Shown in pieces: positions 1,307-32,592 of a DNA stretch of 33,924 nucleotides. The position numbers and the translations under genes were made by a program. Numbering within the stretch: the stretch's first letter is position 1; each line of letters starts with the position of its first letter. The stretch covers positions 1 to 33,924 of the forward strand of contig JAIRSY010000052.1 of the NCBI GenBank assembly GCA_031255215.1, written 5' to 3'. The notes beneath the pieces were generated by a model. That model saw only the letters and a list, made by a program, of their open reading frames with translations. It was not told the DNA's origin and did no database searches. The stretch is from Christensenellaceae bacterium. Its GTDB lineage: Bacteria; Bacillota; Clostridia; Christensenellales; UBA1242.

Positions 1307-2002
1307 TCAAATGTCACCGATATTTTTCGAAACGGAGACAATTTGGAAGCCCTTTTCCAAATAATATGATAAAATCCGAGCCAAAACGGCGGCGGTTGCC
1401 TTTGTCGGGTGCATAAGAATAAGGTCGCCGTTTTTTATGTCTTTTGTTGCACGTTGGAAAATTAACTGCTCATCTTGATCACGCCAATCTATGGTGTCTT
1501 TCCCCTGGGTTCTTAATATGGTTTTATAGTTCAAACTTTCCGCAACTTTTACCGTTGTTTTATTATATGCCATTGACGGCGGTGCAAACAAGGTCATTTC
1601 GACGCCGGTAATACTTTTTACAAGTGCATGAGTATTCAAAATTTCGCTTCTTATTTTGTTCTCGTCTGCAATGTTTAAATCTGCATGTGTATACCCGTGG
1701 TTGCCGATTTCAAATTCCCGTGACATTTGTTGAAGAAGTGCATGATTTTTCATTACCCAAACCCCGCCCACAAAAAATGTCGCCGATGCTTTTGCATTTT
1801 TAAGTGTTGATATGATGTTGGGCAAAACTTCGTCAAAATCGTCATAAACATTTATCATTATTGAAACATAATTTTTATTCGGGTTGCCATTGTAAAGCGG
1901 TGCGGTTATTCCAACATAGGTTTTGTCCAAATTGAGGGTAAAGACAAGGACGGACAATACGGCCAAGGCACCACAGATAATTACATTTGCAAATTTGTGC
2001 AT
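1307..2002 (-). CDS. Polysaccharide deacetylase family sporulation protein (YlxY/PdaB-like)
   Basis: N-terminal hydrophobic anchor; NodB-type motifs ATFFVGG, GNHGYTH, FAPPS, TIDW, ILMHP. INVY in place of TFDD is typical of YlxY-like proteins. Confidence 0.8.
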   Translation of the reverse strand: MHKFANVIICGALAVLSVLVFTLNLDKTYVGITAPLYNGNPNKNYVSIMINVYDDFDEVLPNIISTLKNAKASATFFVGGVWVMKNHALLQQMSREFEIGNHGYTHADLNIADENKIRSEILNTHALVKSITGVEMTLFAPPSMAYNKTTVKVAESLNYKTILRTQGKDTIDWRDQDEQLIFQRATKDIKNGDLILMHPTKATAAVLARILSYYLEKGFQIVSVSKNIGDI

Positions 2003-2015
2003 AATAATATATATT
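1987..2015 (+). promoter_or_regulatory. SigA-type promoter of the M16 peptidase (leaderless)
   Basis: TTGCAA-17 bp-TATATT ending 7 nt before ATG 2023; no SD. Confidence 0.55.
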
Positions 2016-2022
2016 TATGAAG

Positions 2023-3258
2023 ATGGCAAAAATTGTTAAAAATTATCCCTCCGGACTTCGTTTGATTGTTGATGAAATGCAGAATTTCAAAAGTGTATCG
2101 ACGGCAATCACAATAATGGTAGGGAGCAGTGACGAGCGGCCGAATGAGCACGGTCTTTCGCATTTTTGTGAACATATGCTTTTTAAAGGGACAAAAAAAC
2201 GCAGCGGAACCGAAATCATCAATCAACTGTCTTTCCTCGGTGTCGATTATAACGCTTGGACCGGAGAGAATTGCACTTGTTATCATACAAAGGGCATTGC
2301 GGATAATGTCGAGACTACCGTCGAAATCCTTGCCGATATGTATTTTAATTTGAAGTTCAATGAAGATGATTTTTATAAGGAAGGCGATGTAATAGTTCAA
2401 GAAATTGCCATGCATGAAGATAACCCGAGAAGTGTTTTATTTGAGTTGGCAAATTCCACGTTCTTTTATGGAACAAAATATCAACACCCGATCGCCGGAA
2501 CGGCAAAAGATGTAAAAAGTTTCCAACCTAAGGATGTCTATAACTATATTAAAAAACATTATATTGCATCAAAAACCGTCTTATCTTTCGCCGGCGACAT
2601 TACGCTTGAAAAAGCGGAAAAATTGGTTGAAAAATACTTCACACCTAACTTTACCGAATTTACAAAACCACAAGTTTTAGAGATTACAGATGAAGTTCTT
2701 CTTCCAAAATCCAAAGAGGTAAAAAAGAATAAGAAAACCGAGCAGCAGCACGTAATGCTTTCTTTCCCCGTTTGTAATCAATTCGGTCACGAAAGATACG
2801 CCTTGCGTTTTCTTAACTCTATCTTTTCCGGGGATATGAGCAGCCGGCTTTTCATGAATGTTCGTGAGAGGTTAGGTCTTGTATACACAATTCACGGCGG
2901 TATGGAACTTACCGATATCGGCGGTTATTATTATATTTTCTTCTCTTGCACGCCTCAAAATACGAAAAAAGTTATTGAAACAATTAAAATTGAGATAGAT
3001 AAACTCTTGAAAAACGGAATAACCGAAGATGAACTTGAAAAGACAAAAAACCAAAAGCAAACCGACCTCTTGTTTGAAACGGAAAATGGTGAGGCGGTAA
3101 ATTCAATCAATGTTGACCAACTTATTAAATTTAATAAGATTCTTCCGTTTGAAGAGCGTCTTAAAATTTACAAAGATATGAAGGTAGCCGACATAGACGG
3201 TGTTGCCCGTAAATATCTTGACATGAACAAGGTAATTATCTCCGTTGTCGGCAAATAA
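2023..3258 (+). CDS. M16 family zinc peptidase (MlpA-like)
   Basis: Inverted zinc motif HFCEH in HGLSHFCEHMLFKGT, NAWT, SSRLF..VRERLGLVY. Alternative start 2017. Confidence 0.9.
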   Translation: MAKIVKNYPSGLRLIVDEMQNFKSVSTAITIMVGSSDERPNEHGLSHFCEHMLFKGTKKRSGTEIINQLSFLGVDYNAWTGENCTCYHTKGIADNVETTVEILADMYFNLKFNEDDFYKEGDVIVQEIAMHEDNPRSVLFELANSTFFYGTKYQHPIAGTAKDVKSFQPKDVYNYIKKHYIASKTVLSFAGDITLEKAEKLVEKYFTPNFTEFTKPQVLEITDEVLLPKSKEVKKNKKTEQQHVMLSFPVCNQFGHERYALRFLNSIFSGDMSSRLFMNVRERLGLVYTIHGGMELTDIGGYYYIFFSCTPQNTKKVIETIKIEIDKLLKNGITEDELEKTKNQKQTDLLFETENGEAVNSINVDQLIKFNKILPFEERLKIYKDMKVADIDGVARKYLDMNKVIISVVGK

Positions 3259-3283
3259 GAAAACGGTCAACTTGAAATAAGGT

Positions 3284-3312
3284 TTGTCAAAATATTCCTT
3301 CGGGGTTATAAT
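3284..3312 (+). promoter_or_regulatory. SigA-type promoter of ftsK (leaderless)
   Basis: TTGTCA-17 bp-TATAAT ending 8 nt before ATG 3321. Confidence 0.75.
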
Positions 3313-3320
3313 CTATTGGA

Positions 3321-5783
3321 ATGAAAAAAACAAAGCAAAAATTCGGGATAGGTGATGCGGTTATAATTTCAAGTGCCTTGCTCTTGGTTTCTGTTCTTTT
3401 TGATTGGGTTGTTGCGAGATTCCTGCTCGGCATCTTTGGTCTTTATTCCTTTGCACTGTTTTTTGCCGGTATTGTTGTCGGTTGCTTGGTGAAGTTCAAA
3501 AATCGAATTTCCGTTAATAAAACATATTTATACGGAAGCCTTGCCCTTTCCGCCGCCGTTTTTACCGCCCTGCATATCCTGTTTACCCAAAAAGAAATTA
3601 ACACTTCAATTGGTGATTATTTGACCGAATGCTATTCCTCCTTTGTTTCCCCGGGGGGAATCCTGTTCGCCGTTCCCGCTTATTTCTTTTTTATTTCATG
3701 CGGTGGGGTGTTGGGAAGCGTTATGGTTTTGTCTTCCGTTTCAATCATTTGTATGGTTTTGATTTTCAATAAGATAGTCGTTCATATTGACGAAAACAAA
3801 GTATTATCACAGGTTCAAAACACCGAAGAAAAAGAACCCGATGATTTTTTAATAGAACCGGACGATTTACAAAAAAGCGTTGAGGCGAAGTATAAAGAAA
3901 ACCTTGAACGCACAAGCCGCAAAAATCTTGACAAAAACAAGTCAATTCTCGGTCTTGATAAGTTGCCTCCGCCGCCCGCAAAACCTAAATTGACACCTTA
4001 TGCGATAAATGCAATGACCACAAGTGTGGCCGCCGGTTCGGTTACCGCTTACGCTTCAAATGTCTTTCAACCCAATATGTATGCACCGAATGGTCCCACG
4101 ATAAATCCTTCCCCTCAACCGTCATTTCAACCTCCCGATGATAACGGCATTAAAAACTTTGATACAAATACCGAATATTCTTTTGCCCAAGAACGTAATC
4201 CCGATCGGCGAAGACCCAATGTTGTTTCACCTGCGAAGTTTGAACAAACTGAAATTTCCCCCGATATCTTGCCGCCGCGTCAATCGCGTCCCGTTCGTTC
4301 CCATAAATATATTAAACCGCAGATTGATATAATAAAAACGGAAAGCAGCGACCTTTCCGGCTTTAATGAGGAAATTGTGTCCAAAAAGATTGCCCTTGAA
4401 GAACTCTTCGTTCAAAACCGCGTCGGTGCACGTATTGACAATTTCGTTGTCGCCCCCGCCGTCACAAGATTTGAAATCGTCCTTGATACCGGAACACGTG
4501 TGAGCGGTGTCGAACGGCTTGAAAGCGATATACAATACGTCCTTGGAACGGACAAAACACGTATGGAATCCCCGATTCAAGGTAAAAACGCGATAGGAAT
4601 AGAAGTCCCCAATAAAGACGTAGGGGCGGTTTCAATCAAAGACCTCCTCAAAAGCCGCGAATTTTTGATGCATTCAAGCCCCCTTGCAATATGTTTGGGT
4701 AAGGATTTGAATAATAATCCGGTTATCGCCGACCTCGCCAAAATGCCGCATCTCCTTGTCGCCGGCACAACGGGTTCCGGTAAATCCATTTGCATAAAGT
4801 CTATTCTCACAAGTTTATTGTTCAAAACCGGTCCCGATGACCTTCGCCTTTTACTTGTCGATATGAAACATGTCGAGTTGAATATCTATAATAACCTTCC
4901 GCATATGTTAATCCCGCAATCAATTACGGATGCGGCCAAGGCAATCAACGCCTTGAAATGGCTTGTCAAAGAAATGCAAAGACGTTACGAAATGTTGGCG
5001 GCAAACGGACTTTCAAGTATCGTCCATTATCATTCGTTGCCGGATTACCAAAACGGAACTCTTGAAAAGTTACCTTACATAGTTATGGTTATTGATGAGG
5101 CCGCCGACCTTATGGCAACAAACCGCAAAGAAGTAGATGAGCAGATTAAACGGCTTGCCTCCCTTGCACGTGCCGCCGGTATCCATATCATTCTTGCTAC
5201 CCAACGTCCAAGTGTTGACGTGATAAGCGGGGTCATTAAGGCGAACATAGGTATTCGCATCGCCTTCCGCGTCCTTTCCGCCGTCGATTCGTCTACGATT
5301 TTGGATACAAAAGGTGCCGAAACCCTCGTCGGCCGCGGCGATATGCTCTATAAAAATGAATTTGGTGTGCAAAGACTTCAAGGCTGTTACCTTGAAGATA
5401 GCGAGGCACGTGAGATTATATCCTTCGTCCGCGATAAAAACCCGTCTAACTTTGATTCCGAACTTGAAGATATTATCCTCAATGGCGAATCCGTTAATGC
5501 CGTTACGACTTTTGATTCATCCGGAAGACCAATAAAGGGTATAGAAGACCAGGACCCATATTTTGTTCAGGTTTTGAAATATGCGGTTCGTGCCGGCAAC
5601 AAGAAAAACACAATTTCAATAAGCGAATTGCAGCGAATCTTTTCAATCGGTTTTGGACGAAGCGGAAAGATAGTCGAACAACTTGCCGCCGCCGGCTATT
5701 TAAGTAATGAAGGTGACGGCCGCCCGCGGACGGTTCTTATTTCGCGTGCCGAAGTAGAGAACCTTTACGGTTCCATAGATTAA
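3321..5783 (+). CDS. ftsK: DNA translocase FtsK/SpoIIIE
   Basis: N-terminal TM helices, Pro-rich linker, MPHLLVAGTTGSGKS (Walker A), IDEAADLM, ATQRPSVDVI, C-terminal gamma-like domain SISELQRIFSIGFGR. Confidence 0.95.
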   Translation: MKKTKQKFGIGDAVIISSALLLVSVLFDWVVARFLLGIFGLYSFALFFAGIVVGCLVKFKNRISVNKTYLYGSLALSAAVFTALHILFTQKEINTSIGDYLTECYSSFVSPGGILFAVPAYFFFISCGGVLGSVMVLSSVSIICMVLIFNKIVVHIDENKVLSQVQNTEEKEPDDFLIEPDDLQKSVEAKYKENLERTSRKNLDKNKSILGLDKLPPPPAKPKLTPYAINAMTTSVAAGSVTAYASNVFQPNMYAPNGPTINPSPQPSFQPPDDNGIKNFDTNTEYSFAQERNPDRRRPNVVSPAKFEQTEISPDILPPRQSRPVRSHKYIKPQIDIIKTESSDLSGFNEEIVSKKIALEELFVQNRVGARIDNFVVAPAVTRFEIVLDTGTRVSGVERLESDIQYVLGTDKTRMESPIQGKNAIGIEVPNKDVGAVSIKDLLKSREFLMHSSPLAICLGKDLNNNPVIADLAKMPHLLVAGTTGSGKSICIKSILTSLLFKTGPDDLRLLLVDMKHVELNIYNNLPHMLIPQSITDAAKAINALKWLVKEMQRRYEMLAANGLSSIVHYHSLPDYQNGTLEKLPYIVMVIDEAADLMATNRKEVDEQIKRLASLARAAGIHIILATQRPSVDVISGVIKANIGIRIAFRVLSAVDSSTILDTKGAETLVGRGDMLYKNEFGVQRLQGCYLEDSEAREIISFVRDKNPSNFDSELEDIILNGESVNAVTTFDSSGRPIKGIEDQDPYFVQVLKYAVRAGNKKNTISISELQRIFSIGFGRSGKIVEQLAAAGYLSNEGDGRPRTVLISRAEVENLYGSID

Positions 5784-6343
5784 ATTTTTTCAAGGTCAAG
5801 GTCGTTGCCACGCTTTCCGTAGAGTCCAATTTCTTCTAAATGTCTAAGGCATTCTTTCGCAGACCAAATGGTATGACTGCACTTGCCGCCGTTTTTTAAG
5901 TAATGTTCACAAAGTTCAATATCGTTTGTAGTTTTGGCGTTTTTGTCCATTTTTTCCTTTTCATTGTGAGTTAGTTTTAAGGGTGGTGTTAAATCCGTTA
6001 ACCATCGTTGACCATAAAAACCGTGAATTTCCAACTTTTCAAGAGCCTTTGTACAATCCTCATGGCGGTGTGATTTACTGTGAACGTATCCTGGTTTCTC
6101 GTTTTCATTATGGATAATATCTGTTAGCATTTCAATTAAACTTTGAACTTTTTTGTTCCAAGCCTTTTTCTCTTCTAATAATTCCTCCCTGAAGTATGCT
6201 ATCTCGCCTTTATTATGCCCTATCAATTCAATTACATTTTGAACTTTTTTGCCAAAAACTTTTCTCTCTTCTAATAATTCATCTACCATTTTATTTATTT
6301 TTATTTCTCTCGCAGTCGTTCCAATAGGTGTTTCGCCGCCCAT
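5780..6343 (-). CDS. Hypothetical protein with internal duplications (187 aa)
   Basis: Strong SD AAGGAGG and its own SigA-type promoter; stop overlaps the ftsK stop; no recognisable family. Confidence 0.75.
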   Translation of the reverse strand: MGGETPIGTTAREIKINKMVDELLEERKVFGKKVQNVIELIGHNKGEIAYFREELLEEKKAWNKKVQSLIEMLTDIIHNENEKPGYVHSKSHRHEDCTKALEKLEIHGFYGQRWLTDLTPPLKLTHNEKEKMDKNAKTTNDIELCEHYLKNGGKCSHTIWSAKECLRHLEEIGLYGKRGNDLDLEKI

Positions 6344-6374
6344 GATATTTCCTCCTTATGTTTATTTTTGCATA

Positions 6375-6403
6375 ATCATATCTTGATTTGTAAACAATGT
6401 CAA
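6375..6403 (-). promoter_or_regulatory. SigA-type promoter of the 187-aa orphan
   Basis: Minus strand TTGACA-17 bp-TATGAT. Confidence 0.7.
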
Positions 6404-6451
6404 TAGTCAATGTTGTGTGTTTTGGCGGCGGTTCAAACCGTATTTACGCAC

Positions 6452-6470
6452 TTTGTCACAATTTGCCGAA
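6452..6470 (+). promoter_or_regulatory. Putative tandem Spo0A boxes
   Basis: TTTGTCACA and TTTGCCGAA 10 bp apart (the second matches TGNCGAA), upstream of TAAAAT at 6491-6496. Confidence 0.4.
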
Positions 6471-6581
6471 CGAATTCGCTTAACAAACTATAAAATATCG
6501 TGAAATAATGCAGTCACATACTTATTTGCCCTTTACCGTTTAAGAAACACATAAGCATTTTAATTTTAAGGAGTAATATTT

Positions 6582-6872
6582 ATGTGTGAAATAGTGCGAA
6601 AGGCAATTGAACGCCTGAAACAAGGTCTATCGGCTTATGAAAAACTTAAAAATCAACCGGAGGAGAAAGAAACGATCCTTGTTCCCAATATAATTGATGA
6701 CGCCGCATTTTATGACGAAGCGGTGCAGTGCGGCTTTGAAATTTCACATTTTATAAGGGACAAGAAGTTTGACAATGATTTACAGCGTGAGAGATACATT
6801 TTAGATTTAAGCCGCAAATTGCAGGAATACAGAGATTATAATAACTTTATGACCGAAAATCGGTGTGTATAA
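6582..6872 (+). CDS. Hypothetical protein (96 aa)
   Basis: AAGGAG SD 8 nt before ATG, followed by a terminator; no recognisable family. Confidence 0.65.
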   Translation: MCEIVRKAIERLKQGLSAYEKLKNQPEEKETILVPNIIDDAAFYDEAVQCGFEISHFIRDKKFDNDLQRERYILDLSRKLQEYRDYNNFMTENRCV

Positions 6873-6883
6873 GCGAACTAAAT

Positions 6884-6913
6884 GTAAGGCAAAATATAAT
6901 TCCTTACTTTTTT
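6884..6913 (+). terminator. Intrinsic terminator
   Basis: GTAAGG...CCTTAC stem followed by TTTTTT. Confidence 0.5.
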
Positions 6914-6915
6914 AC

Positions 6916-6944
6916 TTGTTACTTGTTTGATCTTGTTGTATATT
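6916..6944 (+). promoter_or_regulatory. SigA-type promoter of topA (leaderless)
   Basis: TTGTTA-17 bp-TATATT ending 8 nt before ATG 6953; no SD. Confidence 0.6.
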
Positions 6945-6952
6945 GAAAAAAT

Positions 6953-8986
6953 ATGAAGTTGGTTATTATTGAAGGTGCGGGCAAAAAGGATACAATCAAG
7001 AAGTATTTGGGATCCGGTTATAACGTGATGGCAACGGGCGGGCATTTTAGGGACCTTAAACAAAATGCTCTCTCCGTTGATGTCGAAAACAATTACCAGC
7101 CGGAATACGTTATCATTCCAAAAAGTGCCAACCCGAAAGGCAAACCGCCGAAAGAGGTGGTAAAGGAATTGAAAAATGCCGCGAGCCAGTGCGATGACGT
7201 CTTAATTGCGACCGACCCGGACAGGGAGGGCGAGGCAATCGCGTGGCATTTGACCTATGTCTTGGGTCTTCCCCACGATTCCGTCCACCGCATTGAATTT
7301 AATGAAATCACAAAAAATGCAATTCAAAAGGCGTTGCAGGTCCCTCGTCCGATCAATATGAATTTGGTAAATGCCCAGCAGGCACGCCGCGTCCTTGACC
7401 GCCTTGTCGGTTATAAATTATCCCCCGTATTATCAAAAAAGGTTAAAAGCGGGCTTTCTGCCGGACGTGTTCAGTCCGTAACACTTAAACTTGTTATCGA
7501 TAGAGAACGTGAAATTCAAAATTTCAAACCCGATGAATATTGGGACTTCTTCTCTCATCTATCAAAAAATAAAATAAGTTTTAAGGCAAAATTGCTTCAA
7601 AAAGAACCGCCGAAAAGTGAAGCCGAGGTCATCGGGATTGTTAAAAAACTTGACGGTGCGGTTTATCGTGCCTCCAATGTTACCAAGAGTATAACCAAAC
7701 GTCACGCCTACGCACCCTTTACAACTTCATCAATGCAACAAAGTGCCGGGACGTTCCTTCAACTTTCACTTAAACGTATTACAATGGCCGCCCAAAATCT
7801 TTATCAGGGTGTAAATTTGGGGGAACAGGGTGCAACCGCACTTGTTACATATATAAGAACCGACAGCGTCCGTATTTCGCCCGAGGCGGCGGCATCGGCG
7901 AAGGAATTTATAGTTAAAAAATTCGGTTCCCAATATTATCCCGAGACACCTAATATTTTTAAGAGTAAAAAAACCGCACAGGACGCCCATGAGGCAATCC
8001 GCCCGACGCATATCGAAATCACACCTGATGAAGTTGACCGATACTTGATTCCGCAGAAAAGACTCGACGAGGCAAAACTTTACCGCCTTATTTATAATAG
8101 ATTCCTTTCATCACAAATGGCGGATGCGACGTTTAATACGACCAAGGTCGATATTGACGCAAATGACGTCAAATTTCGCGTCAACGGAAGGACCCCCATA
8201 TTTGACGGTTGGCTTGTATTGAATGCAAAATCAAAACATAAAGAAGAAGATAAAACCGATGACGACGAAAACACCGTTGCCGAACTTCCCGAAATAAATG
8301 TCGGCGACGTTTTGGACTTCATAAAATTGGAATATGCCCAAAAATTTACTTCTCCGCCCGCCCGTTACACCGAACCTTCTCTTGTCAAGGCAATGGAAGA
8401 AAACGGGATAGGGCGTCCCGCAACTTATAACCCCACAATTCAATTGCTTTTTAACCGTCTCTATATACAACATGATGAGGATAATAAACGGGCCGTTAAA
8501 CCAACCGAACTTGGTTTCACCGTCGTCGATTGGCTTTCAAAATATTTTGTTAAGGTTATGGATATAGGTTTCACCGCCGATATGGAAGATAAACTTGACG
8601 ATATCGCCGCAAATGGAATTGATTGGACAAAGGTCGTTGATGATTTTTATAAACCGTTTAGTGAAACCATTCAGTTTGCCAAAGAACACGGCGAGGAGAG
8701 CAGGGTCGCACCCGAACTTACCGATATTTTATGTGAAAAATGTGGAAAACCTATGGCGGTAAGGGTCGGCAGGTTCGGCAAGTTTTTGGGCTGCTCCGGC
8801 TATCCGGAATGTAAAAATCTTAAACCTTTCGGACCCCCCGCCTTTAATTGTCCAAAATGTGGGGCGGGAGTTTTCAAACGCAACGGAAAGAAATCGGTTT
8901 TTTACGGTTGCAGCAACTATCCCAAATGCGACTTTATGTGTTGGAAAAGCGATCTTGAAAAATACCTGCCAAAGGAACAAAAGTAA
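6953..8986 (+). CDS. topA: DNA topoisomerase I (type IA)
   Basis: TOPRIM ATDPDREGEAIAWH, SAGRVQS, catalytic TYIRTDS, GIGRPATY, two C-terminal C4 zinc ribbons. Confidence 0.97.
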   Translation: MKLVIIEGAGKKDTIKKYLGSGYNVMATGGHFRDLKQNALSVDVENNYQPEYVIIPKSANPKGKPPKEVVKELKNAASQCDDVLIATDPDREGEAIAWHLTYVLGLPHDSVHRIEFNEITKNAIQKALQVPRPINMNLVNAQQARRVLDRLVGYKLSPVLSKKVKSGLSAGRVQSVTLKLVIDREREIQNFKPDEYWDFFSHLSKNKISFKAKLLQKEPPKSEAEVIGIVKKLDGAVYRASNVTKSITKRHAYAPFTTSSMQQSAGTFLQLSLKRITMAAQNLYQGVNLGEQGATALVTYIRTDSVRISPEAAASAKEFIVKKFGSQYYPETPNIFKSKKTAQDAHEAIRPTHIEITPDEVDRYLIPQKRLDEAKLYRLIYNRFLSSQMADATFNTTKVDIDANDVKFRVNGRTPIFDGWLVLNAKSKHKEEDKTDDDENTVAELPEINVGDVLDFIKLEYAQKFTSPPARYTEPSLVKAMEENGIGRPATYNPTIQLLFNRLYIQHDEDNKRAVKPTELGFTVVDWLSKYFVKVMDIGFTADMEDKLDDIAANGIDWTKVVDDFYKPFSETIQFAKEHGEESRVAPELTDILCEKCGKPMAVRVGRFGKFLGCSGYPECKNLKPFGPPAFNCPKCGAGVFKRNGKKSVFYGCSNYPKCDFMCWKSDLEKYLPKEQK

Positions 8987-9014
8987 TTTCAATCTCCGCT
9001 TCATTACTTTTTAC

Positions 9015-9043
9015 TTGTCCCTTATCACTTATTGTGTTATTCT
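9015..9043 (+). promoter_or_regulatory. SigA-type promoter of hslV (leaderless)
   Basis: TTGTCC-17 bp-TATTCT with extended TGn, ending 6 nt before ATG 9050. Confidence 0.65.
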
Positions 9044-9049
9044 TTGCTC

Positions 9050-9583
9050 ATGGAAATAAGAGGAACAACAATAATTGCCGTTAAAAAGGACGGCAAAACC
9101 GTTATCGCCGGTGATGGGCAGGTAACGGTGGGACAATCCGTTATTATGAAAGGTAATGCGGTCAAGGTTCGCCGTATGTATGACGGTAAGGTCGTCGTCG
9201 GGTTCGCCGGCTCCGTCGCCGACGCCTTCACTTTGTCCGCAAAGTTTGAGGAAATGCTTCAAAAACGTTCGGGAAATCTCTTACGCTCCGCCGTTGATTT
9301 GGCAACAAGTTGGCGGACGGATAAGTTTTTGGGGAAACTTGAAGCGATGATGATTGTTGCGGATAAGGACAAGTTCTTGCTTATATCCGGTGACGGGAAT
9401 GTCATTGAACCCGACGGCGGTGCGGCCGCAATCGGTTCCGGCGGCAATTATGCCCTTTCCGCCGCAAAGGCACTTCTTCAAAATACAAATATGACCGCAA
9501 AAGAAATCGCAAAAGAGGCGATGAAGATTGCGGGGGAGATTTGCATCTTTACGAATAATAATTTAACAGTGGAGGAAATATGA
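9050..9583 (+). CDS. hslV: ATP-dependent protease subunit HslV/ClpQ
   Basis: [43 protein letters not shown]. Confidence 0.97.
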
Positions 9584-11172: not shown

Positions 11173-11222
11173 AAAGGAAGAAGTTTGGATAACATAATAT
11201 TGTTTCCTTACTTCTTCCTTTT
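11172..11222. terminator. Bidirectional intrinsic terminator
   Basis: AAAAGGAAGAAGT...ACTTCTTCCTTTT inverted repeat between convergent genes. Confidence 0.75.
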
Positions 11223-12952: not shown

Positions 12953-12998
12953 TACTTAAATTCCCCCCAATTATAATAACATGTTTATGATAATACAT

Positions 12999-13027
12999 TT
13001 GCAAAAATTTGTAAATTAAAATATAAT
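12999..13027 (+). promoter_or_regulatory. SigA-type promoter of hslU
   Basis: TTGCAA-17 bp-TATAAT; the downstream gene has an AAGGAG SD. Confidence 0.7.
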
Positions 13028-13099
13028 CCCTTATATTTCATGACGATGAAGAATAATCATTCGAGGGAATGAAATGAAAAAAAGAAGGAGTTAAAGTTT

Positions 13100-14419
13100 A
13101 TGGATATTTTACCGAAAGAGATAGTGACACAACTTGACCGCTATATAATCGGTCAAAAGGAGGCAAAGCGTGTGGTCGCGATTGCCCTTCGAAACAGATA
13201 CCGCCGAAGTCAGCTTCCAAAGGAAATACGGGAGGAAATAACACCGAAAAATATCATAATGAAGGGGCCGACGGGCGTCGGCAAAACCGAAATCGCAAGA
13301 CGCCTCGCAAAACTTGTCGGTGCACCCTTTATAAAGGTGGAGGCAACAAAATATACGGAGGTCGGTTATGTTGGACGCGATGTGGAGAGCATGATACGTG
13401 ACTTGGTGGAAGTTGCCATTCGAATGGTGCGGGAGAAGAAACAAAAGGAAGTGCAGGAAAAAGCGGAAAAGATAGTGGAAAAAAGAATCGTTTCCGCGAT
13501 TGTTGCGGAAAAAAAGAAAAGGGCGGTTGATGTGGCGGAAAGTATTCTCACCGAACAAACTTATGCGGAATACAGGGACAAAAAACTTGAAAACTTTATA
13601 ATTGAATTGGAAATGAAACGCGAATTGAAACCCATGCTTGACCTTCCCGTTGGTATGTCAATGGGTATTGAAATCGGTTCAATTTTCGATTCAATCGCCC
13701 CGGGGACTTTACCGAAAAATACAAAGAAGAAATCAATAAGCGTTGAATCGGCACGTGAACAACTTCTTGAAGAAGAATGCGATAAACTTATTGATAGGGA
13801 TTTAATTTCGCAGGAAGGCATTGCACTTGCGGAACAAAGCGGAATAATCTTCCTTGATGAAATTGATAAAATTGGAACGGTGGGGCGTGGCGGCGGTCCG
13901 GAAGTTTCGCGTGAAGGTGTTCAAAGGGATTTGTTGCCGCTTGTGGAAGGGTCGGCGGTTCAAACGAAATACGGGACGGTGAAAACGGATTATATCCTCT
14001 TCATTGCCGCCGGTGCATTTCACGTTTCAAAAGTAAGCGACCTTATCCCCGAACTTCAAGGACGTTTCCCCATTCGTGTCGAATTGGCATCGTTAAACAA
14101 GGGCGACTTCTTGAAGATTTTAACACAGCCTGACAATGCCATTACAAAACAATATGAGCAGTTACTTTCGGTTGACGGTATCAATTTGAAATTTGACAAA
14201 GACGCCTTGAACCTTATCGCCGAACTTGCGGAAAATGAGAATGAAGCCAATGAGAATTTGGGTGCACGAAGACTTCACACAATTATGGAAATGTTGTTGG
14301 AGGAAATATCTTTTAATGTTTCTAAAACTCCGCAGGAAGTAATAATTGATAAAGCGTTTGTTGAATCGAACATGAAAAATATAATCAAAAAGACCGACTT
14401 GAAAAATTATGTCCTTTGA
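13100..14419 (+). CDS. hslU: ATP-dependent protease ATPase HslU/ClpY
   Basis: PKEIV..LDRYIIGQ, GPTGVGKTEIARRLA, GYVG pore loop, FLDEIDKI, ELQGRFPIRVEL, ENLGARRLHTIME. Confidence 0.97.
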   Translation: MDILPKEIVTQLDRYIIGQKEAKRVVAIALRNRYRRSQLPKEIREEITPKNIIMKGPTGVGKTEIARRLAKLVGAPFIKVEATKYTEVGYVGRDVESMIRDLVEVAIRMVREKKQKEVQEKAEKIVEKRIVSAIVAEKKKRAVDVAESILTEQTYAEYRDKKLENFIIELEMKRELKPMLDLPVGMSMGIEIGSIFDSIAPGTLPKNTKKKSISVESAREQLLEEECDKLIDRDLISQEGIALAEQSGIIFLDEIDKIGTVGRGGGPEVSREGVQRDLLPLVEGSAVQTKYGTVKTDYILFIAAGAFHVSKVSDLIPELQGRFPIRVELASLNKGDFLKILTQPDNAITKQYEQLLSVDGINLKFDKDALNLIAELAENENEANENLGARRLHTIMEMLLEEISFNVSKTPQEVIIDKAFVESNMKNIIKKTDLKNYVL

Positions 14420-14444
14420 CCTTGTGGGTCGGTCAAGTTATATT
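14416..14444 (+). promoter_or_regulatory. SigA-like promoter pointing antisense into the aspartokinase gene
   Basis: TTGACC-17 bp-TATATT; also contains a TTGACC-N9-GGTCAA inverted repeat. Confidence 0.4.
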
Positions 14445-14445
14445 G

Positions 14446-15102
14446 TCACTTAATCGGTGGATGTTGGGTGCATACCCTTGTGCCTGCCTTACGTATATCA
14501 AACGTGTTTCTTATCTCCATGGGAATGTTTGCGGTTTCCAATAGTTTTATTGCGTTTTTATGAACAACGGGGAATGCGGCAAGCATTTTATAACTCATTT
14601 GAGAAATGGTCTTCTTGTTTTCATCATAAATGCCGTCTACATCTGTGAACTTTTCATAGACCTTTGCATGAAATAACATCGCCAAAACCGCACCGGTGTA
14701 ATCACTTCCGCCGCGTGTAAGTAATTCGTATCTTCCGCCGTTGACGCCGTAAAATCCCCCTATGACGGCGGGTAATTTTATTTTGGCAAGATTCCGTTTC
14801 GTTTTTGTTAAATTTATGGTTCTGTTTTTATTTATTTCAATTACATCTTTTGCATCTATAAAATTAAAGTTTAATAATTGTGCCATAAGTTTTGCGGAAA
14901 AATATTCGCCGCGTGACACGATATAATCTTTGTCTGTCAAGTTTTCAAACCGGTCGGCAAATTCAAAGAGTTGATTTGTAACATTGTGCGGAGCGGAAAC
15001 GACGATAAGTTTTCTCCGTGAATCGCTCTTTACAATTTTAACACACCGCAAAACGGCACGTTTGTTCCCCATACTTGTCCCGCCAAACTTTACGACCTTC
15101 AT
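14446..15102 (-). CDS. lysC: Aspartate kinase, catalytic domain only (218 aa)
   Basis: MKVVKFGGTS, VVSAP, SRGEY, TRGGSDYTG, TDVDGI, NTF...GT; the ORF ends where ACT domains normally begin. Confidence 0.85.
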   Translation of the reverse strand: MKVVKFGGTSMGNKRAVLRCVKIVKSDSRRKLIVVSAPHNVTNQLFEFADRFENLTDKDYIVSRGEYFSAKLMAQLLNFNFIDAKDVIEINKNRTINLTKTKRNLAKIKLPAVIGGFYGVNGGRYELLTRGGSDYTGAVLAMLFHAKVYEKFTDVDGIYDENKKTISQMSYKMLAAFPVVHKNAIKLLETANIPMEIRNTFDIRKAGTRVCTQHPPIK

Positions 15103-15179
15103 ATTTCCAGTATATTATGCCGTCAAACTTCTTTGTGAATTTGGGAGCGTGGACCCAATTGTTTGCATATATATAGACA

Positions 15180-16286: not shown

Positions 16287-16338
16287 ACCTGCCGCCGCCT
16301 CGTTCACCCCAATATATATAGGAAAGCAACAAACATCT

Positions 16339-16641
16339 TTATAGATTTTCAAGCATTTTCAAGATGACCGCTTTGGGTTTTAGTCCCGCCCATTTCTCAA
16401 TGACCTCTCCATCCTTCATTATCACAATAAATGGGATGTGGGTAATTCCAAATCTTCTGTTAAGTCCTTCGCTGCTCCCCGTGTCAATACTCCAAAAATT
16501 GATGCCTTTTTTTTCCTTTTCTATTTGTTCCAAAACGGGCTGAATCATTCTGCAAGCACCGCAGCCCACCCCCCAAAAATCGACAACGGAGATGCCGTTG
16601 GCGGTTTTTTCATCGAATTCATTTTCATTTATTTCTTTCAT
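16339..16641 (-). CDS. Thioredoxin-family protein (CGAC active site)
   Basis: VVDFWGVGCGACRMIQP, HIP cis-Pro motif, KDGE; start at ATG 16641. Confidence 0.85.
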   Translation of the reverse strand: MKEINENEFDEKTANGISVVDFWGVGCGACRMIQPVLEQIEKEKKGINFWSIDTGSSEGLNRRFGITHIPFIVIMKDGEVIEKWAGLKPKAVILKMLENL

Positions 16642-16648
16642 ATTTTCC

Positions 16649-16677
16649 AATATATAAAAAAGAGGTTGACTTGTCAA
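16649..16677 (-). promoter_or_regulatory. SigA promoter of thioredoxin (leaderless)
   Basis: Minus strand TTGACA-17 bp-TATATT ending 7 nt before ATG. Confidence 0.75.
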
Positions 16678-16694
16678 ACTATTTGTGTTAAAGT
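16666..16694 (+). promoter_or_regulatory. SigA promoter of rpoB
   Basis: TTGACT-17 bp-TAAAGT with extended TGn; SD GGAGGA before ATG 16778. Confidence 0.65.
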
Positions 16695-16777
16695 TTTCTA
16701 AATAGAGATTTTTATTCTTTCACTTATACTTTGGCGGATTGAAATAAAGCCAATTTATAAATTATGGAGGAGTTTGC

Positions 16778-19700
16778 ATGGCAATAAATTTGAAACAAAC
16801 GGGAGAGTTTGTAGATAAATACGGAAAAACGGATAGGCACGTTTTTCGGCGTGTTCCGGAATTATTAGAAGTGCCGAACCTTTTGGATGTTCAAAGGGCG
16901 AGTTTTAATCGTTTTCTTGAAAATGGGATAAAGGAAGTTTTTAACGAATTCAACCCAATAATTGATTACTCGGGAAAGATTGAGGTTTGGTTCCTCGATT
17001 ATCATCTTGAAAACGATTCTAAAAATTATTCGGAACAGGAATGCCTACGCCGCGGCGTTATGTTTACCAAATCCTTGAAGGTAAAAGTCAGGGTCTTGAT
17101 AAAGGATAGCGGGGAAATCATTGAGCAGGAAGTGTTTTTGGGCGACGTTCCTATGATGACGGAGGGCGGATATTTTATTGTGAACGGAGTGGCGAGGGTG
17201 ATTGTAAATCAAATTATAAAGTCCCCGAGTGTTTATTATAAGACGACGCAGTATACGAACAAGGCTACACTTTCCGCAAAAGACATTACATGCACGCTTG
17301 AACCCGCACATGGGGCATATATAGAGATTACAAAAGACATGAAAGATGTCCTGCATGTTTCCCCGAATAAGACGCCGAAGATGACCTTGGGAGTTTTTCT
17401 GCGAGGGCTTGGTTTTGGTTCCGATAATGAAATTCTTGAATTGTTTGGACATCATCCTTTAATAAAGAATACTCTTGACAAAGATAAAGATAAAAGTAAA
17501 GAAAAAGACCTTGAAATGACAAAAGAGAAAGCACTTTTGGAAATAAGCCGAAAGATGCGTCCAAGCGAACTTCCCAATGCGGGTGCGATGGAAAATGCAC
17601 TCAACAATATGTTCTTTACCTTTCCAAGTTATGATTTATCTTCGGTTGGAAGATATAAATTCAACAAGAAGTTGGGACTTTTGGGCAGGATAATAAATGA
17701 AATCGCCGCCGAAGACATAAAGGTTAACGGGAAAGTTATAGTAAAAAGAGAGGAAGAAATAACGAAAGAGACCGCGGAGAAGATTGTCGGGGCGGGTATA
17801 AACAGGATATCTATACTTAACAAATTCGGTAATGCCGTATTGGTGATAGGTAATGGGCAGAGGACGGAACGTCATCTTACAAAAGATGACATTGTCGCCG
17901 CCGTGTCTTATTATTTGAACTTTATGGATGATGTAGGGTCAAAGGACGAAATTGACCACCTTATGAATAGGCGTCTCAACATGACGGGCGACCTTATGAC
18001 GCGGCATTTCAAGGACGGAATGCTTAAACTTAGAAATTCTATACGTGAAACAATGCAGACCATGGATATAAACAGTAAACAAATAAATCCGATTTCCATT
18101 ATAAATGCACGGCCGATAACGAGGGCGCTCCGTGATTTTTGTGCGGTTTCGCAGCTTTCTCATGTTATGGACACAAACAATCCTCTTACGGAAATTACAC
18201 AAAAGAGGAAGGTCACGGCGGTCGGGCCGGGCGGAATAATGGAGAAGAAGAGGGCGACGGCGGAGGTTCGCGACCTTCATTTTTCTCACAATGGCCGTAT
18301 TTGTGCCGTGGAAACACCGGAGGGGCAGTCCATCGGGCTTGTAAACTCCCTCGCTATGTATGCGAAAATAAATCAGTATGGCTTTATTACCGCTCCGCTT
18401 CGACAAGTTGATAAAAAAAGCGGAAAAGTTACGGACAAGGTGGACTATCTTACCGCCGATGAAGAGGACGCCTTTTATATTGCACAGGCAACGGAACCGT
18501 TGAAGGCCGACGGAACATTAAAAAACGAATACATTGTTGTCCGTCATAGAGATTTGGTAATGGAGGTGACAAAGGACAGAGTAGACTATATTGATGCAAG
18601 TCCAAGGCAGTTTATTTCCTTGTCCACGGCGTTGATTCCGTTTCTTGAAAACGACGATGCCGGCCGTGCCTTATTGGGTTCAAATATGCAAAGGCAGGCG
18701 GTTCCGCTTATAAAAACGGAGGCACCGATTGTGGGGACGGGTCTTGAACATCGTGCCGCCCTTGATTCCGGTGCCTTGGTTGTTGCAAAAAATGACGGTA
18801 TAGTTACCTCCGTTACATCCGAAACAATTGAAATTCAAAGGGATTTGGATAAGAATAAAGATATTTATAAACTTATCAAATTATCACGGTTCAATGAGGA
18901 GGCTTGTGTAAATCAAAAAGCGATAGTGAAAAATGGGGATAAAGTAAAGAAAGGTGACGTCATTGCGGATGGCTATGCGACCGATAACGGTGAATTGGCA
19001 ATCGGCAAAAACATGTGTGTTGCCTTTATGAATTGGGAAGGATATACCTTTGAAGATGCGATTTTAATAAGTGAGAGGGTTGTAAAGGAAGATAAATTTA
19101 CATCTATTGCCCTTCATTTGAAAGAATGCCGTGCAAGAATAAACCCAAAGATAGGCGACGAAGAAATCACTCGTGATATTCCCAATTTAAGTGATGATGC
19201 ACTTGCGAATCTTGATGAAAGGGGAATCGTTCGAATAGGGACATTTGTAAGGACGGGCGATATACTTGTTGGAAGGGTTACCCCAAAGGGCGAAACGGAA
19301 ATGTCGCCGGAAGAGAAGTTGTTAAAGGCGATTTTTGGGGACAAAAGCCGTGACGTTCGCGATACCTCTCTTCGTGTTGAAAACGGTAAAGAGGGTGTTG
19401 TTGTCGGGATAGAGGTTTTCAGCCGAGAGAACAAGGATGAACTTGACGTCGGGGTAAATGAATTGGTTAAGGTGATTATCGCACAAAAACGCAATGTAAA
19501 GGTCGGCGATAAAATGACCGGCCGTCACGGAAACAAGGGTATTGTTTCAAAGATATTGCCGGTTGAGGATATGCCTTACATGGCGGACGGCACACCGGTA
19601 GATATAATATTGAATCCTATGGGCGTCCCGTCACGTCTTAATATTGGGCAATTATTGGAAATCTCGCTCGGCTTAATCGGTCATATAACGGGCAATAAAT

Positions 19701-24633: not shown

Positions 24634-24635
24634 CA

Positions 24636-25677: not shown

Positions 25678-25735
25678 AAAATATAGGAATCGTTGTTCAA
25701 TTAAACGGCGGTTTCGTAAAAAGAGGAGGGAAAAA

Positions 25736-26275
25736 ATTATTTTTAAGGGGTGTAAAATAAACGGCGAGATAAGGGCGGGGGAACTTCGCGTTATCGGTGC
25801 CGATAACCAAATGGTTGGGATTATGACCCTCGCCGCCGCTCTTCGTCGTGCCGATGAAGACGGGCTGGATTTGGTTTTAATCAATGAAGCTTCTCAACCG
25901 CCGATTGCCAAAATTACAGATTACGCAAAGTTTCGTTACGAGGCAATAAAAAAAGAAAAAGAACAAAAGAAGGAACAGAGGAATAACATTGTCCATCTTA
26001 AAGAAATTCAACTTTCAATCGCTATTCAGGAAAATGAAATTGAATTCAAAATGAAAAAGGCAAGGGAATTTATTAACGACGGCGACAAGGTTAAGGTTTG
26101 CATCAACCGCCTTAAAGGTCGAAAAATGCAGCTTGCCGACAAGGGCGTCGCCGTCATTAACGCTTTCGCCGAAAAAATGGCCGACATCGCCGAAATGGAA
26201 ATGCCCGTTAAAAAACTTGGCGGCGGTGCAGGCGGTGTGAATATTATGACTATATTAAAAGGGAAAAACAAATAA
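25736..26275 (+). CDS. infC: Translation initiation factor IF-3 (ATT start)
   Basis: GGAGG SD then in-frame ATT at 25736 or 25739 giving ..INGEIRAGELRVIG; LDLVLI...PPIAKITDYAKFRYE, GDKVKV. Confidence 0.95.
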   Translation: MIFKGCKINGEIRAGELRVIGADNQMVGIMTLAAALRRADEDGLDLVLINEASQPPIAKITDYAKFRYEAIKKEKEQKKEQRNNIVHLKEIQLSIAIQENEIEFKMKKAREFINDGDKVKVCINRLKGRKMQLADKGVAVINAFAEKMADIAEMEMPVKKLGGGAGGVNIMTILKGKNK

Positions 26276-27418: not shown

Positions 27419-27435
27419 AAAAATGTTTTTCAAGA
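27413..27435. repeat. Perfect inverted repeat (hairpin or operator) between trmH and yebC
   Basis: TCTTGAAAAA-atg-TTTTTCAAGA. Confidence 0.55.
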
Positions 27436-27466
27436 TGAATTTATTAAAAGGAAAAGTAATAAAACC

Positions 27467-28571: not shown

Positions 28572-28598
28572 ATTTGGCGGCAAAGGATACGTGAAAGG

Positions 28599-29237: not shown

Positions 29238-29935
29238 TTTGCAATCTCCTTTATCTTCTCTATGTCGTAATCATGTTTAATGAAATTCTGCTTATTCGGT
29301 TGTGTTTGCCGTTTTCTTAATTCCTTGATAAGTCTCTCTAATTCGGTTCTGTTCGCCTTGCCTGCCTCGAATTTGGCCGATACACCCCCAACCGTCCTTA
29401 ATCCCAAATACGCAAGATTCTTCGCTACGGTCAAAATATAAGCGTAACCAACGGTATACCCTTTTAACTCTGCACAGTTTTTGATTACAAGCAATAACGC
29501 GTCCGGTTCAAAGTGCATGCTTTCCATAAAGGCGTAATACTCATGAAATTCGGTTGTTGTTATCATTCGTCCGTCCAAAATCGCCTGTGCCTTTGCATTA
29601 AAATCATCGTATTTTCCCGTAGGCAGGTTTTTTACTTTTGAAGAATTATTTCTAATAGGAAGATACTTCACCTCGTCATTTACAAACTGGACAAGACCTT
29701 GCCCCTCCCAAAATTCAAATGCACTCTTCACATCTTCAACCGACAACCCCAATGTCAAACTTACATTCTCAATTGTATTTTCTGAACCAATGGAATTATT
29801 GCAAAGCATTAACCCGTAGAGATATACACGGACGCAATCCCCGTTTGATGTGGGAAGATGCTCGTTCAAAAAAATGTTGGAAATCATCGTGTAATTTGAA
29901 TTTACCATTCCCCTCGAATATGAAACAAACGCCAT
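29216..29935 (-). CDS. DnaD/DnaB domain replication protein
   Basis: TMISNIFLNEHLP..NGDCVRVYLYGL, AFEFWEGQGLV, YILTVAKN...G.T; next to the loader ATPase. Confidence 0.8.
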   Translation of the reverse strand: MAFVSYSRGMVNSNYTMISNIFLNEHLPTSNGDCVRVYLYGLMLCNNSIGSENTIENVSLTLGLSVEDVKSAFEFWEGQGLVQFVNDEVKYLPIRNNSSKVKNLPTGKYDDFNAKAQAILDGRMITTTEFHEYYAFMESMHFEPDALLLVIKNCAELKGYTVGYAYILTVAKNLAYLGLRTVGGVSAKFEAGKANRTELERLIKELRKRQTQPNKQNFIKHDYDIEKIKEIAKCKEDTF

Positions 29936-29940
29936 GTCTA

Positions 29941-29949
29941 ATTGTAACA
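29941..29949 (-). promoter_or_regulatory. Extended -10 of the dnaD-like gene (leaderless)
   Basis: Minus strand TGtTACAAT ending 5 nt before ATG 29935. Confidence 0.55.
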
Positions 29950-29984
29950 TAAAAATGAAGAAATTAAAGTTCTATTTTTTTGCG

Positions 29985-31256: not shown

Positions 31257-31286
31257 ATACATAAACATTGTAATATATAAAATACA

Positions 31287-32144
31287 ATGAGTAAAATTAA
31301 AATTGCCGTTGTCGGGTGCAGCGGTTTGGTTGGTTCGACAATGTTAAAAGTCTTAAAGGAGCGGGGCGTCGACGCCGACCTTGTATGTATAAAAAAACTT
31401 TCTCTTCAAATAATCCGTGACACACGCCCGGATTATGCCCTTATGGCGGTTTCCGCAGACCTTTCCAAAATTTGGACCCCTGTTTTCGTGAAATATGGAA
31501 CGGTGGTGATTGATAATAGCAGTCACTTTCGCCAAAACCCAAAAGTCCCACTTATCGTTCCCGAGGTCAATGCCGACCAAATAAAATCCGCCAAGATTAT
31601 CGCCAACCCTAATTGTTCAACTATTCAATCCGTTATCCCTCTTTCACTATTGAATAAGGACAATAAAATTAAAAAGATTATTTATAATACTTATCAGGCC
31701 AAATCCGGTGCCGGTGCCGAAACACTTCGCGAGTTTATCAAAAAACCCGATTTCAATGTTATACCCTTTATCCAAGATGAAGAAGAAAAAATGATAAATG
31801 AAACGAAAAAAATACTTAATGATTTTAATCTTGAAATTTATGCCACATGTGTTCGCGTTCCCGTTCGAAATTGTCATCTCGTTTCAATTTATGTCGAATT
31901 TGAATCAATCATTGATTTTGAAAAGATAAAAACCTTGCTCAATCCACGCAAAATGATTACCCCGGTTGAAGCCGATGGTTTTGATGAGATTTTCGTTTGC
32001 CGCCTGCGTCAAAATAATGACCGTTCAATTTCCTTCATTACCGTTGCCGATAATTTACGCAAAGGTGCCGCCACAAATGCAGTCCAAATCCTCCAAGGTA
32101 TCCTCCGTAACAAACATAAAGGTATCGACGACGGGGGGAAATAA
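31287..32144 (+). CDS. asd: Aspartate-semialdehyde dehydrogenase, shortened (285 aa)
   Basis: AVVGCSGLVG, VIDNSSHFR..VPLIVPEVN, IANPNCST, ATCVRVPV..CH, DNLRKGAATNAVQI. Confidence 0.93.
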   Translation: MSKIKIAVVGCSGLVGSTMLKVLKERGVDADLVCIKKLSLQIIRDTRPDYALMAVSADLSKIWTPVFVKYGTVVIDNSSHFRQNPKVPLIVPEVNADQIKSAKIIANPNCSTIQSVIPLSLLNKDNKIKKIIYNTYQAKSGAGAETLREFIKKPDFNVIPFIQDEEEKMINETKKILNDFNLEIYATCVRVPVRNCHLVSIYVEFESIIDFEKIKTLLNPRKMITPVEADGFDEIFVCRLRQNNDRSISFITVADNLRKGAATNAVQILQGILRNKHKGIDDGGK

Positions 32145-32236
32145 TGCTTGATACCTTGATTATTGATATCTGTGTAGGTTTGGCGTTCGCCTTCTTTGCC
32201 TCCTTTATCGCTTTTTTTGCGTGTCGTCAAAAGTAG
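32144..32236 (+). CDS. Putative 30-aa single-TM small protein
   Basis: MLDTLIIDICVGLAFAFFASFIAFFACRQK; TAATG overlap with asd; GGGGGG SD at 32133-32138. Confidence 0.5.
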   Translation: MLDTLIIDICVGLAFAFFASFIAFFACRQK

Positions 32237-32258
32237 ACAAGATACGATTCTTCCTTGA

Positions 32259-32267
32259 TGCTACTAT
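32259..32267 (+). promoter_or_regulatory. Extended -10 of the spoIIA operon (leaderless)
   Basis: TGcTACTAT ending 7 nt before ATG 32275; no SD. Confidence 0.55.
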
Positions 32268-32274
32268 CTTGATT

Positions 32275-32592
32275 ATGAAAGTAATAAATAAGATTTTGGA
32301 CAATGTCCTCTACATCTCATTGGAAGGTGAACTTGATGAGGCATCCGCCGAGTTTACGCGTTCCAATCTTGATGCCTGTTTGGACAATTCACATGCAAAA
32401 CAAATCGTCATTGACCTTGCAAAACTTTCCTTTATGGATTCCACCGGTATTGGCATGCTTATCGGCCGTTATAAAAAAATGAAAACGAAAGGTGTCCCAA
32501 TCTTCATTTCCAATCCAAGCAGCCACGCCGACCGCATTTTCAAAATGACGGGTCTTTACGAAATAATGCCGAAAGTTGAAAGGAGGGCATAA
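32275..32592 (+). CDS. spoIIAA: Anti-sigma F factor antagonist
   Basis: LEGELD, LSFMDSTGIGMLIGRYK with the phosphoacceptor Ser retained; operon context. Confidence 0.92.
   Translation: MKVINKILDNVLYISLEGELDEASAEFTRSNLDACLDNSHAKQIVIDLAKLSFMDSTGIGMLIGRYKKMKTKGVPIFISNPSSHADRIFKMTGLYEIMPKVERRA

Follow-up and report, generated by a model that had tools for sequence, protein, structure and literature searches.

Many genes with a promoter abutting the start codon, predicted to give leaderless mRNAs, in a small-genome genus of Clostridia

The stretch of DNA analysed here (the window) comprises the 33,924 nucleotides (nt) of contig JAIRSY010000052.1 in the Christensenellaceae bacterium assembly GCA_031255215.1. 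Genes for an M16 peptidase, FtsK, TopA, HslV, an amino-acid kinase, a thioredoxin, a DnaD/DnaB_2-like protein and a STAS (SpoIIAA-like) protein carry promoter elements of the SigA type that end only a few nucleotides before the ATG, so that their mRNAs would be leaderless. Other genes, including rpoB, rpsU, infC and hslU, are preceded by Shine-Dalgarno (SD) sites. The genome to which the window belongs (G000, in which the window is contig C31) has 706,728 bp in 71 contigs and a GC content of 40%. Its lineage is placed in the Clostridia and reads TGA as a stop (90% coding under table 11). The closest RpoB matches, at 67-74% identity, come from three Clostridia metagenome-assembled genomes (MAGs), one of them from water-buffalo rumen, and the next best matches stand at about 50%.

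The first-pass annotation had described eight promoter-to-ATG layouts in the window. When the sequence was read directly, all eight were found, with the hexamers and distances that had been given. They are listed below with their scores on a strict position weight matrix (PWM) for the -35 and -10 elements.

1987..2025, + strand: M16 peptidase promoter, TTGCAA at 1987-1992, 17 nt, TATATT at 2010-2015, 7 nt, ATG at 2023; PWM 8.2; Pfam M16
3284..3323, + strand: ftsK promoter, TTGTCA at 3284, 17 nt, TATAAT ending at 3312, 8 nt, ATG at 3321; PWM 11.8; 11/12 consensus; Pfam FtsK
6916..6955, + strand: topA promoter, TTGTTA at 6916, 17 nt, TATATT ending at 6944, 8 nt, ATG at 6953; PWM 8.6
9015..9052, + strand: hslV promoter, TTGTCC at 9015, 17 nt, TATTCT at 9038-9043, 6 nt, ATG at 9050; PWM 10.0
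15100..15139, - strand: amino-acid kinase ('lysC', 218 aa), a weak case, TATACT at 15114-15109, 6 nt, ATG at 15102; PWM 3.2, below threshold
16639..16677, - strand: thioredoxin promoter, TTGACA at 16677, 17 nt, TATATT ending at 16649, 7 nt, ATG at 16641; PWM 8.5
29933..29949, - strand: DnaD/DnaB_2-like gene, extended -10 TGtTACAAT, 5 nt, ATG at 29935; no -35
32259..32277, + strand: STAS (SpoIIAA-like) gene, a weak case, TGcTACTAT, 7 nt, ATG at 32275; no -35

Five of the eight layouts pass the strict PWM for -35 plus -10. A sigma-70 scan of positions 1-17000 gave 78 promoter-like sites, compared with 43.3±7.0 in shuffles; the thioredoxin promoter ranked best and that of ftsK second, and those of the M16 peptidase and topA were also listed (4/8 sites). 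The kinase gene has an alternative reading, TTCACA-16-TAATAT, 9 nt before the ATG, and its divergent neighbour starts at 15180, 77 nt off. As for the gene identities, Pfam bears out those of M16, FtsK, TopA, HslV, thioredoxin, DnaB_2/DnaD-like and STAS, and two labels had to be corrected: HslU is encoded at 13100-14419, the gene at 9580-11172 being a GT1 glycosyltransferase, and the product labelled lysC is a 218-aa amino-acid kinase.

The start codons themselves can be compared with those of relatives. The M16 start (ATG 2023) is the second ATG of its frame, and the N-terminus of the G005 orthologue, which carries TTGCAT-17-TATCAT-6-ATG at the co-linear start, aligns there. In 16 congener loci TopA can be aligned from its first residue, and the HslV start (MEIRGTTI) is co-linear with 17 congeners. 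The thioredoxin N-terminus MKEIN matches a congener homologue with TTGCAA-17-TAAAAT-6-ATG, and the G005 orthologue of the DnaD-like gene keeps the layout (TGaTATAAT-7-ATG) at a start, MGLVSFSRG, that is co-linear. The longest frames of hslV, thioredoxin and the dnaD-like gene begin inside the promoter. The G005 orthologue of the STAS gene is SD-led (AAAGGAGG). In the window this gene is followed by those for an anti-sigma kinase and a sigma factor (Pfam), and a SpoIIAA/AB/sigma-type operon is kept.

The layout is not confined to these genes. In the whole genome, 708 genes were called with a codon log-odds finder (90% coding), and the first ATG of each frame was used as the start, a rule that is unable to favour any motif. 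TANNNT starts at position -12 in 69 of 654 genes (10.6%), compared with 3.0% per position at -60 to -21 (p=6e-19); shuffling the 40 nt upstream 200 times yielded counts that averaged 23.5 and peaked at 39, against the 69 observed. The pattern lies well outside what chance would give. The composite TTG-N19-21-TANNNT, with TANNNT at -15 to -11, occurs in 108 of the 654 genes (15.4 expected from -45 to -21), and 170 genes have TANNNT at -14 to -10 and no SD. When upstream regions were aligned on the hexamer, with only TANNNT fixed, T, T and G appeared in 68, 61 and 48% exactly 17 nt upstream, together with an A/T-rich tract at -32 to -28 and TAtaaT at -10; the spacers among the seeds were of 17 nt (64), 18 nt (17) and 16 nt (8). 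Since neither the -35 TTG nor the upstream tract had been selected for, the motifs are promoters and not merely AT-rich DNA, and they have the make-up of SigA/sigma-70 housekeeping promoters (a TTGACA-like hexamer, 16-18 nt, and a TATAAT-like hexamer). The same picture emerges without gene calls: an ATG lies 5-8 nt downstream of TTG-N19-21-TATAAT in 56 places, and the displaced distances of 15-18 and 25-28 nt give 18 and 13 such places. It also emerges when motifs are left aside. Starts lie 40 nt apart or less in 16 of the 106 divergent gene pairs of the window genome, compared with 3/34 in G005 (first 286 kb), 0/31 in G022 and 0/23 in G030.

A PWM trained on the congener G005, another species, called 99 of the 654 first-ATG starts leaderless at a threshold of 6, against a displaced-site null of 2.2%. 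After start refinement, the 669 genes fell into leaderless (120, 18%), strong SD (208), weak SD (126) and none (215). Leaderless calls were made for 109 of 495 operon-first genes (22%) and only 11 of 174 operon-internal ones (6%), defined as lying within 25 nt of an upstream gene on the same strand; of the latter, 113 have an SD. The gap between the -10 and the ATG among the 120 calls ranges from 4 to 9 nt (14 at 5, 40 at 6, 30 at 7, 20 at 8 and 15 at 9 nt), and with a peak at 6-7 nt the +1 would fall on the A of the ATG. Overlap with SD sites is rare: a 4-mer SD core lies at -20 to -5 in 4 of the 134 leaderless calls in the set that also scored the eight layouts, and an SD core is present in 13 of the 183 first-ATG genes with TANNNT at -14 to -10. 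In the class with neither signal, a residual peak at -12 (22, compared with about 6 per position, with 11 cases of TGnTANNNT at -13/-12) points to some 20 further genes with a -10 only.

Relatives show how far the layout extends. The genus comprises 19 genomes, all of about 0.6-1.1 Mb, compared with 1.3-3.9 Mb in the other families of the order. In the whole genome of G005 (904,191 bp), the composite motif stands before 146 of 825 genes (22.6 expected), and the identical pipeline called 20% of genes leaderless there, 1% in G022 and 4% in G030, two genomes of the same order. The strict pattern occurs 32-74 times in every one of the 19 genomes of the genus, compared with 0-7 times in the backwards control. 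Samples of nine further families of the order gave 0-2 composite matches each; no positional peak was found in eleven other families of the order, nor in G030 and G024, which are equally AT-rich. In a survey of the order (81 genomes drawn evenly across 42 families), the excess over the displaced control was largest in the window genome (56 vs 18, or 53.7 per Mb); genomes outside family f1 had a median excess of 2.0 per Mb, and a ratio of at least 2 in 12 of 78. The layout is therefore a lineage trait and not a quirk of the window, graded within the order and extreme in this genus. Six rpoB loci of Coriobacteriia/Actinobacteria, intended as a positive control, yielded only 68 usable genes in redundant regions.

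Taken together, about one fifth of all genes and roughly one quarter of the operon-first ones are very probably leaderless, with a SigA promoter abutting the ATG, while the SD route is kept elsewhere, and this would be a genus-wide trait. With TTGaca, a spacer of 17±1 nt and TAtaaT ending 5-8 nt before the ATG, RNA polymerase would start on, or within 1-2 bases of, the A of the ATG, and the resulting mRNA would have no 5' leader and no SD site. By analogy with studied leaderless mRNAs, its 5'-terminal AUG would be bound by ribosomes together with the initiator tRNA. The SD route would serve the other genes, chiefly the operon-internal ones together with rpoB, rpoC, rpsU, rplT, infC and hslU. 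The claim of the first-pass annotation that leaderless genes are widespread alongside SD-led ones is in this sense upheld by counts, controls and relatives, with the transcription start sites (TSSs) predicted.

Other explanations of the same layouts have been considered. It is unlikely that the promoters are real but that the TSS lies a few bases upstream of the ATG or within the frame, which would give very short leaders or a downstream start. The gaps of 4-9 nt and the polysaccharide deacetylase gene described below, whose -10 overlaps its ATG, would fit such starts, but the mode of 6-7 nt is the canonical distance to +1 and A is among the bases favoured for initiation. In the systems that have been studied, mRNAs with 1-3 nt of leader act like leaderless ones. 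That the starts are miscalled, with the true ones downstream behind an SD and the promoter-proximal ATG in the 5' untranslated region (UTR), is very unlikely: although the start rules are simple and 24 of those 134 leaderless calls are not the first ATG, TopA, HslV, thioredoxin, the DnaD-like protein and the M16 peptidase align from residue 1 with their relatives, and starts are co-linear with those of G005 orthologues in 57% of leaderless-called genes, compared with 53% of strong-SD genes.

The remaining two explanations deny that the box is a promoter. An unstructured A/T-rich landing site for ribosomes in a leadered mRNA, as in Bacteroidota, could accommodate the roughly one third of genes for which no SD and no promoter was called. 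However, a TTG held at 17±1 nt and an A/T tract further upstream are characteristic of promoters and are not known to play a part in RNA, few operon-internal genes carry the motif (11/174), and divergent starts 40 nt apart or less leave no room for leaders; we regard this as a remote prospect. Composition has the least to commend it. Upstream regions are 68% A+T and the loose TANNNT occurs at about 3% of positions, but chance matches would not produce a positional peak (10.6% at -12) or exceed the shuffle maximum (69 vs 39), nor would they bring a -35 at 17 nt, and the peak is missing in the equally AT-rich G030 and G024. It is hardly credible that chance accounts for the pattern.

Several points nevertheless weigh against leaderless initiation on this scale. 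The kinase, DnaD-like and STAS genes (3/8) lack a -35, carrying just a -10 or extended -10, and do not pass the PWM, and 215 of the 669 genes fall in neither class. The genome is a metagenome bin (86% complete, 0% contamination) that is incomplete and divided into 71 contigs, the gene finder (codon log-odds plus the first-ATG rule) is crude, and all TSSs, with the translation mode that would follow from them, are inferred from promoter geometry. The layout is also labile. The two congeners G000 and G005 have 420 reciprocal best hits (median identity 52%); of the 77 leaderless-called genes of G000 with an orthologue in G005, 34 are leaderless there, and the orthologues of the others are SD-led in 17 cases and unclassified in 26. 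The sharing of leaderless status by these 34 pairs is above chance (odds ratio 4.3, p=2e-7). Finally, the tiny gaps at the following two sites hold no properly spaced -10 for the deacetylase gene at 2002 or for the pair 31268/31287.

2000..2025, both strands: divergent starts 20 nt apart, deacetylase ATG 2002 (-) and M16 ATG 2023 (+)
31266..31289, both strands: divergent starts 18 nt apart, ABC-2 membrane gene (-) and asd-like gene ATG 31287 (+)

The polysaccharide deacetylase gene (window 1995-2029, - strand) lacks an SD, and the one good -10 that it has (TATTAT/TATATT) overlaps or directly adjoins its ATG.

The genes that had been named as a contrast set were rightly chosen, as rpoB, rpsU (S21) and hslU have SD sites and infC has an SD too. 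Three of these sites are given below.

13085..13102, + strand: hslU SD AAGGAG and ATG at 13100 (from sequence and Pfam)
16766..16780, + strand: rpoB SD GGAGGAG and ATG at 16778 (class SD5)
25722..25738, + strand: infC SD GAGGAGGG and in-frame ATT start at 25736 (from sequence)

The infC gene appears to begin at an in-frame ATT, at 25736 or 25739, 6-9 nt past GAGGAGGG (window 25722-25741). The first ATG, at 25811, would drop about 20 residues of the N-domain of IF3, and the IF3_N profile starts 20 positions earlier. A non-AUG start of infC is the classic autoregulated type. The 3' end of the 16S rRNA reads GATCACCTCCTTT (CACCTCCTTT), with the CCTCC anti-SD retained. With the anti-SD intact, both initiation routes would coexist, and together with the SD and ATT start of infC it indicates that the canonical route is intact.

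Some further observations concern the leaders of these genes. A perfect 12/12 consensus promoter, TTGACA-17-TATAAT, lies at 25519-25547 of the window in the 3' end of a radical-SAM gene, about 190 nt before infC, which implies a long leader for infC-rpmI-rplT. At the Rfam gathering score no L20 leader was found for infC-rpmI-rplT, and neither Rfam at gathering thresholds nor ARAGORN gave a match anywhere in the window. In front of rpoB, the stretch GGCGGATTGAAATAAAGCC (window 16733-16751) is identical in G005 despite proteins that are only 67% identical, and may be a conserved leader element. Loci L001-L003 of the closest MAGs, compared with window genes near rpoB, gave no match that starts within the first 12 residues.

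Comparison within the genus suggests how leaderless genes may have arisen. In 16 congeners topA has an AGGAGG-type SD at the same ATG, directly after an upstream gene, as part of an SD-led string, and in 17 congeners hslV likewise has AGGAGG before the same ATG in an SD-led string after an upstream gene. In the window genome, both genes have their own promoter abutting that same ATG, and with AGGAGG at the same ATG in 16-17 congeners the initiation signal has changed in this species. An intergenic repeat of tandem TTACTT-type heptads (…CTTACTTnTTACTTnTTACTT…) occurs at 6905-6924, 9004-9018 and 11209-11227 of the window and on contigs C9, C28, C35, C37, C39, C44, C61, C65 and C70 of the same genome. 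A strict regular expression finds 17 copies in G000, all intergenic, and one in the backwards control; some form inverted pairs 30-100 nt apart. No copy was found in the whole of G005, nor in the 400 kb searched in each of G022 and G030. Two of the copies overlap -35 regions, those of the G000-specific topA and hslV promoters, and the repeat may therefore supply their TTGT.

The surroundings of hslV and of the thioredoxin homologues can be added here. Between hslV and hslU (13100) lie the GT1 glycosyltransferase gene (9580-11172), which overlaps the end of hslV by 4 nt, and a gene for a 576-aa protein on the opposite strand (11222-12952), for which no Pfam match was found. In several congeners, a conserved block (…ACGGAAAC…CATACCA…TTTGTAAAGTGGCAGAA…), perhaps a regulatory site or RNA element, lies upstream of a thioredoxin paralogue.

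L225, L228, L229, L232, L226, L235, L238, L239: congener loci of the thioredoxin paralogue

One feature that varies along with the leaderless signal is ribosomal protein S1. In each of 12 relatives from other families, an rpsA profile matched over four domains with 171-330 bits; it detected no multi-domain S1 homologue in the 19 genus genomes (63-93% complete), where only single S1 domains, at 53 bits or less, were found in open reading frames (ORFs) of about 709 and 570 aa. The S1-bearing frame of the relatives G027 and G019 has an N-terminus that we take to be IspH-like; a tblastn search of G000 and G005 with the whole frames returned no match to the IspH part or to the S1 part with its several domains. 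Within family f1, G050 has a stand-alone S1 and G084 has none. Among the 81 genomes of the order, 77 have an S1 match at E≤1e-25, and the S1 score correlates negatively with the ratio of leaderless matches to controls (Spearman -0.55; -0.60 on family means, n=42). Pooled pattern matches show no enrichment in the 44 genomes with S1 of at least 265 bits (940 vs 964 displaced controls), rise to 1116 vs 688 in the 33 genomes with a diverged S1 of 121-255 bits, and stand at 176 vs 96 in genomes without an S1 match. Genome size alone was rejected as an explanation, since the correlation persists when it is partialled out (-0.56) and the 1.4 Mb genome G030 has no peak.

On this basis we propose, tentatively and with more doubt than confidence, that leaderless initiation rises stepwise as S1 erodes across the order, and that new leaderless promoters arise at unchanged starts when operons break, as at topA and hslV. 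The association with S1 is a lead and not a mechanism, because the genomes compared share ancestry and a single clade could lie behind the whole of it. Mollicutes are not known to carry ribosomal protein S1. Two caveats come from a review, which states that ribosomes in low-GC Gram-positives, Bacillus among them, do not carry bS1 and that leaderless mRNAs do not need it (PMC9031893).

Leaderless architecture as such is already known, and it is unusual for Clostridia; what is new here are the switches from SD to leaderless at fixed starts and the S1 gradient. In group C of GeneMarkS-2 (Lomsadze et al. 2018, PMC6028130), the starts of operon-first genes have a Pribnow box at a distance of 6-8 nt and SD sites serve the rest, with 25-50% of operons leaderless; the group holds 773 of 859 Actinobacteria (mostly high-GC), 37 of 38 Deinococcus-Thermus and 36 of 1064 Firmicutes. 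The window genome resembles it, by our own gene finder and PWM, in the -10 about 6-8 nt from operon-first starts, the SD elsewhere and the intact anti-SD, and its 22% of operon-first genes is comparable to the 25-50% of operons. Unlike typical members, it belongs to an uncultured clostridial lineage with a genome of roughly 0.7-1 Mb, 40% GC and genetic code 11, and its -35 TTG is clearly part of the signal. Code-11 genomes of group C are almost all high-GC, and Mollicutes (Mycoplasma) with code 4, which also fall in group C, have 30-60% leaderless transcripts (MetaGeneMark-2 preprint, 10.1101/2022.07.25.500264). The present lineage is like the Mollicutes in having a low-GC, reduced, Firmicute-derived genome with many (predicted) leaderless transcripts, but it reads TGA as a stop, sits in the Clostridia and keeps the SpoIIAA/AB/sigma-type operon.

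Within the Firmicutes, the survey of Zheng et al. (2011, PMC3160421) gives an average of 4.2% leaderless genes (range 2.4-16.6%), mainly in Lactobacillales and Mycoplasma, and reports no Clostridia. Leaderless genes of Lactococcus, Streptococcus and Leuconostoc are similar to those described here in belonging to low-GC Firmicutes and in having TAtAAT, in many cases extended by TG, some 10 nt ahead of the start; the estimate for G000 and G005 is 18-20%, obtained by a different method. Clostridioides difficile, of the same class and with SigA promoters and aGGAGg sites as well, shows a leaderless mRNA at 6 of 1646 TSSs and an SD in about 90% of its 5' UTRs (10.1101/2020.08.10.244764); it represents the ordinary state from which this lineage departs. 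The earlier statement that leaderless genes are uncommon in model Firmicutes thus agrees with the literature (group C takes in 3.4% of Firmicutes; 6/1646 TSSs in C. difficile). Our literature search, with supplement tables outside its scope, found no report on leaderless genes in Christensenellales or in uncultured gut or rumen Clostridia.

These findings describe a low-GC, standard-code Firmicute genus in which about one fifth of the genes are seemingly leaderless. Standard gene callers assume a ribosome-binding site, so starts would be misplaced in this lineage. Close relatives that have an SD at identical start codons make the genus a natural system for studying how and why bacteria switch their initiation mode. 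The order-wide link with S1 divergence or loss and with small genomes offers a testable lead on what permits the switch. If true, this would be a second, independent reduced and S1-less Firmicute lineage that is moving to leaderless mRNAs, beside the Mollicutes.

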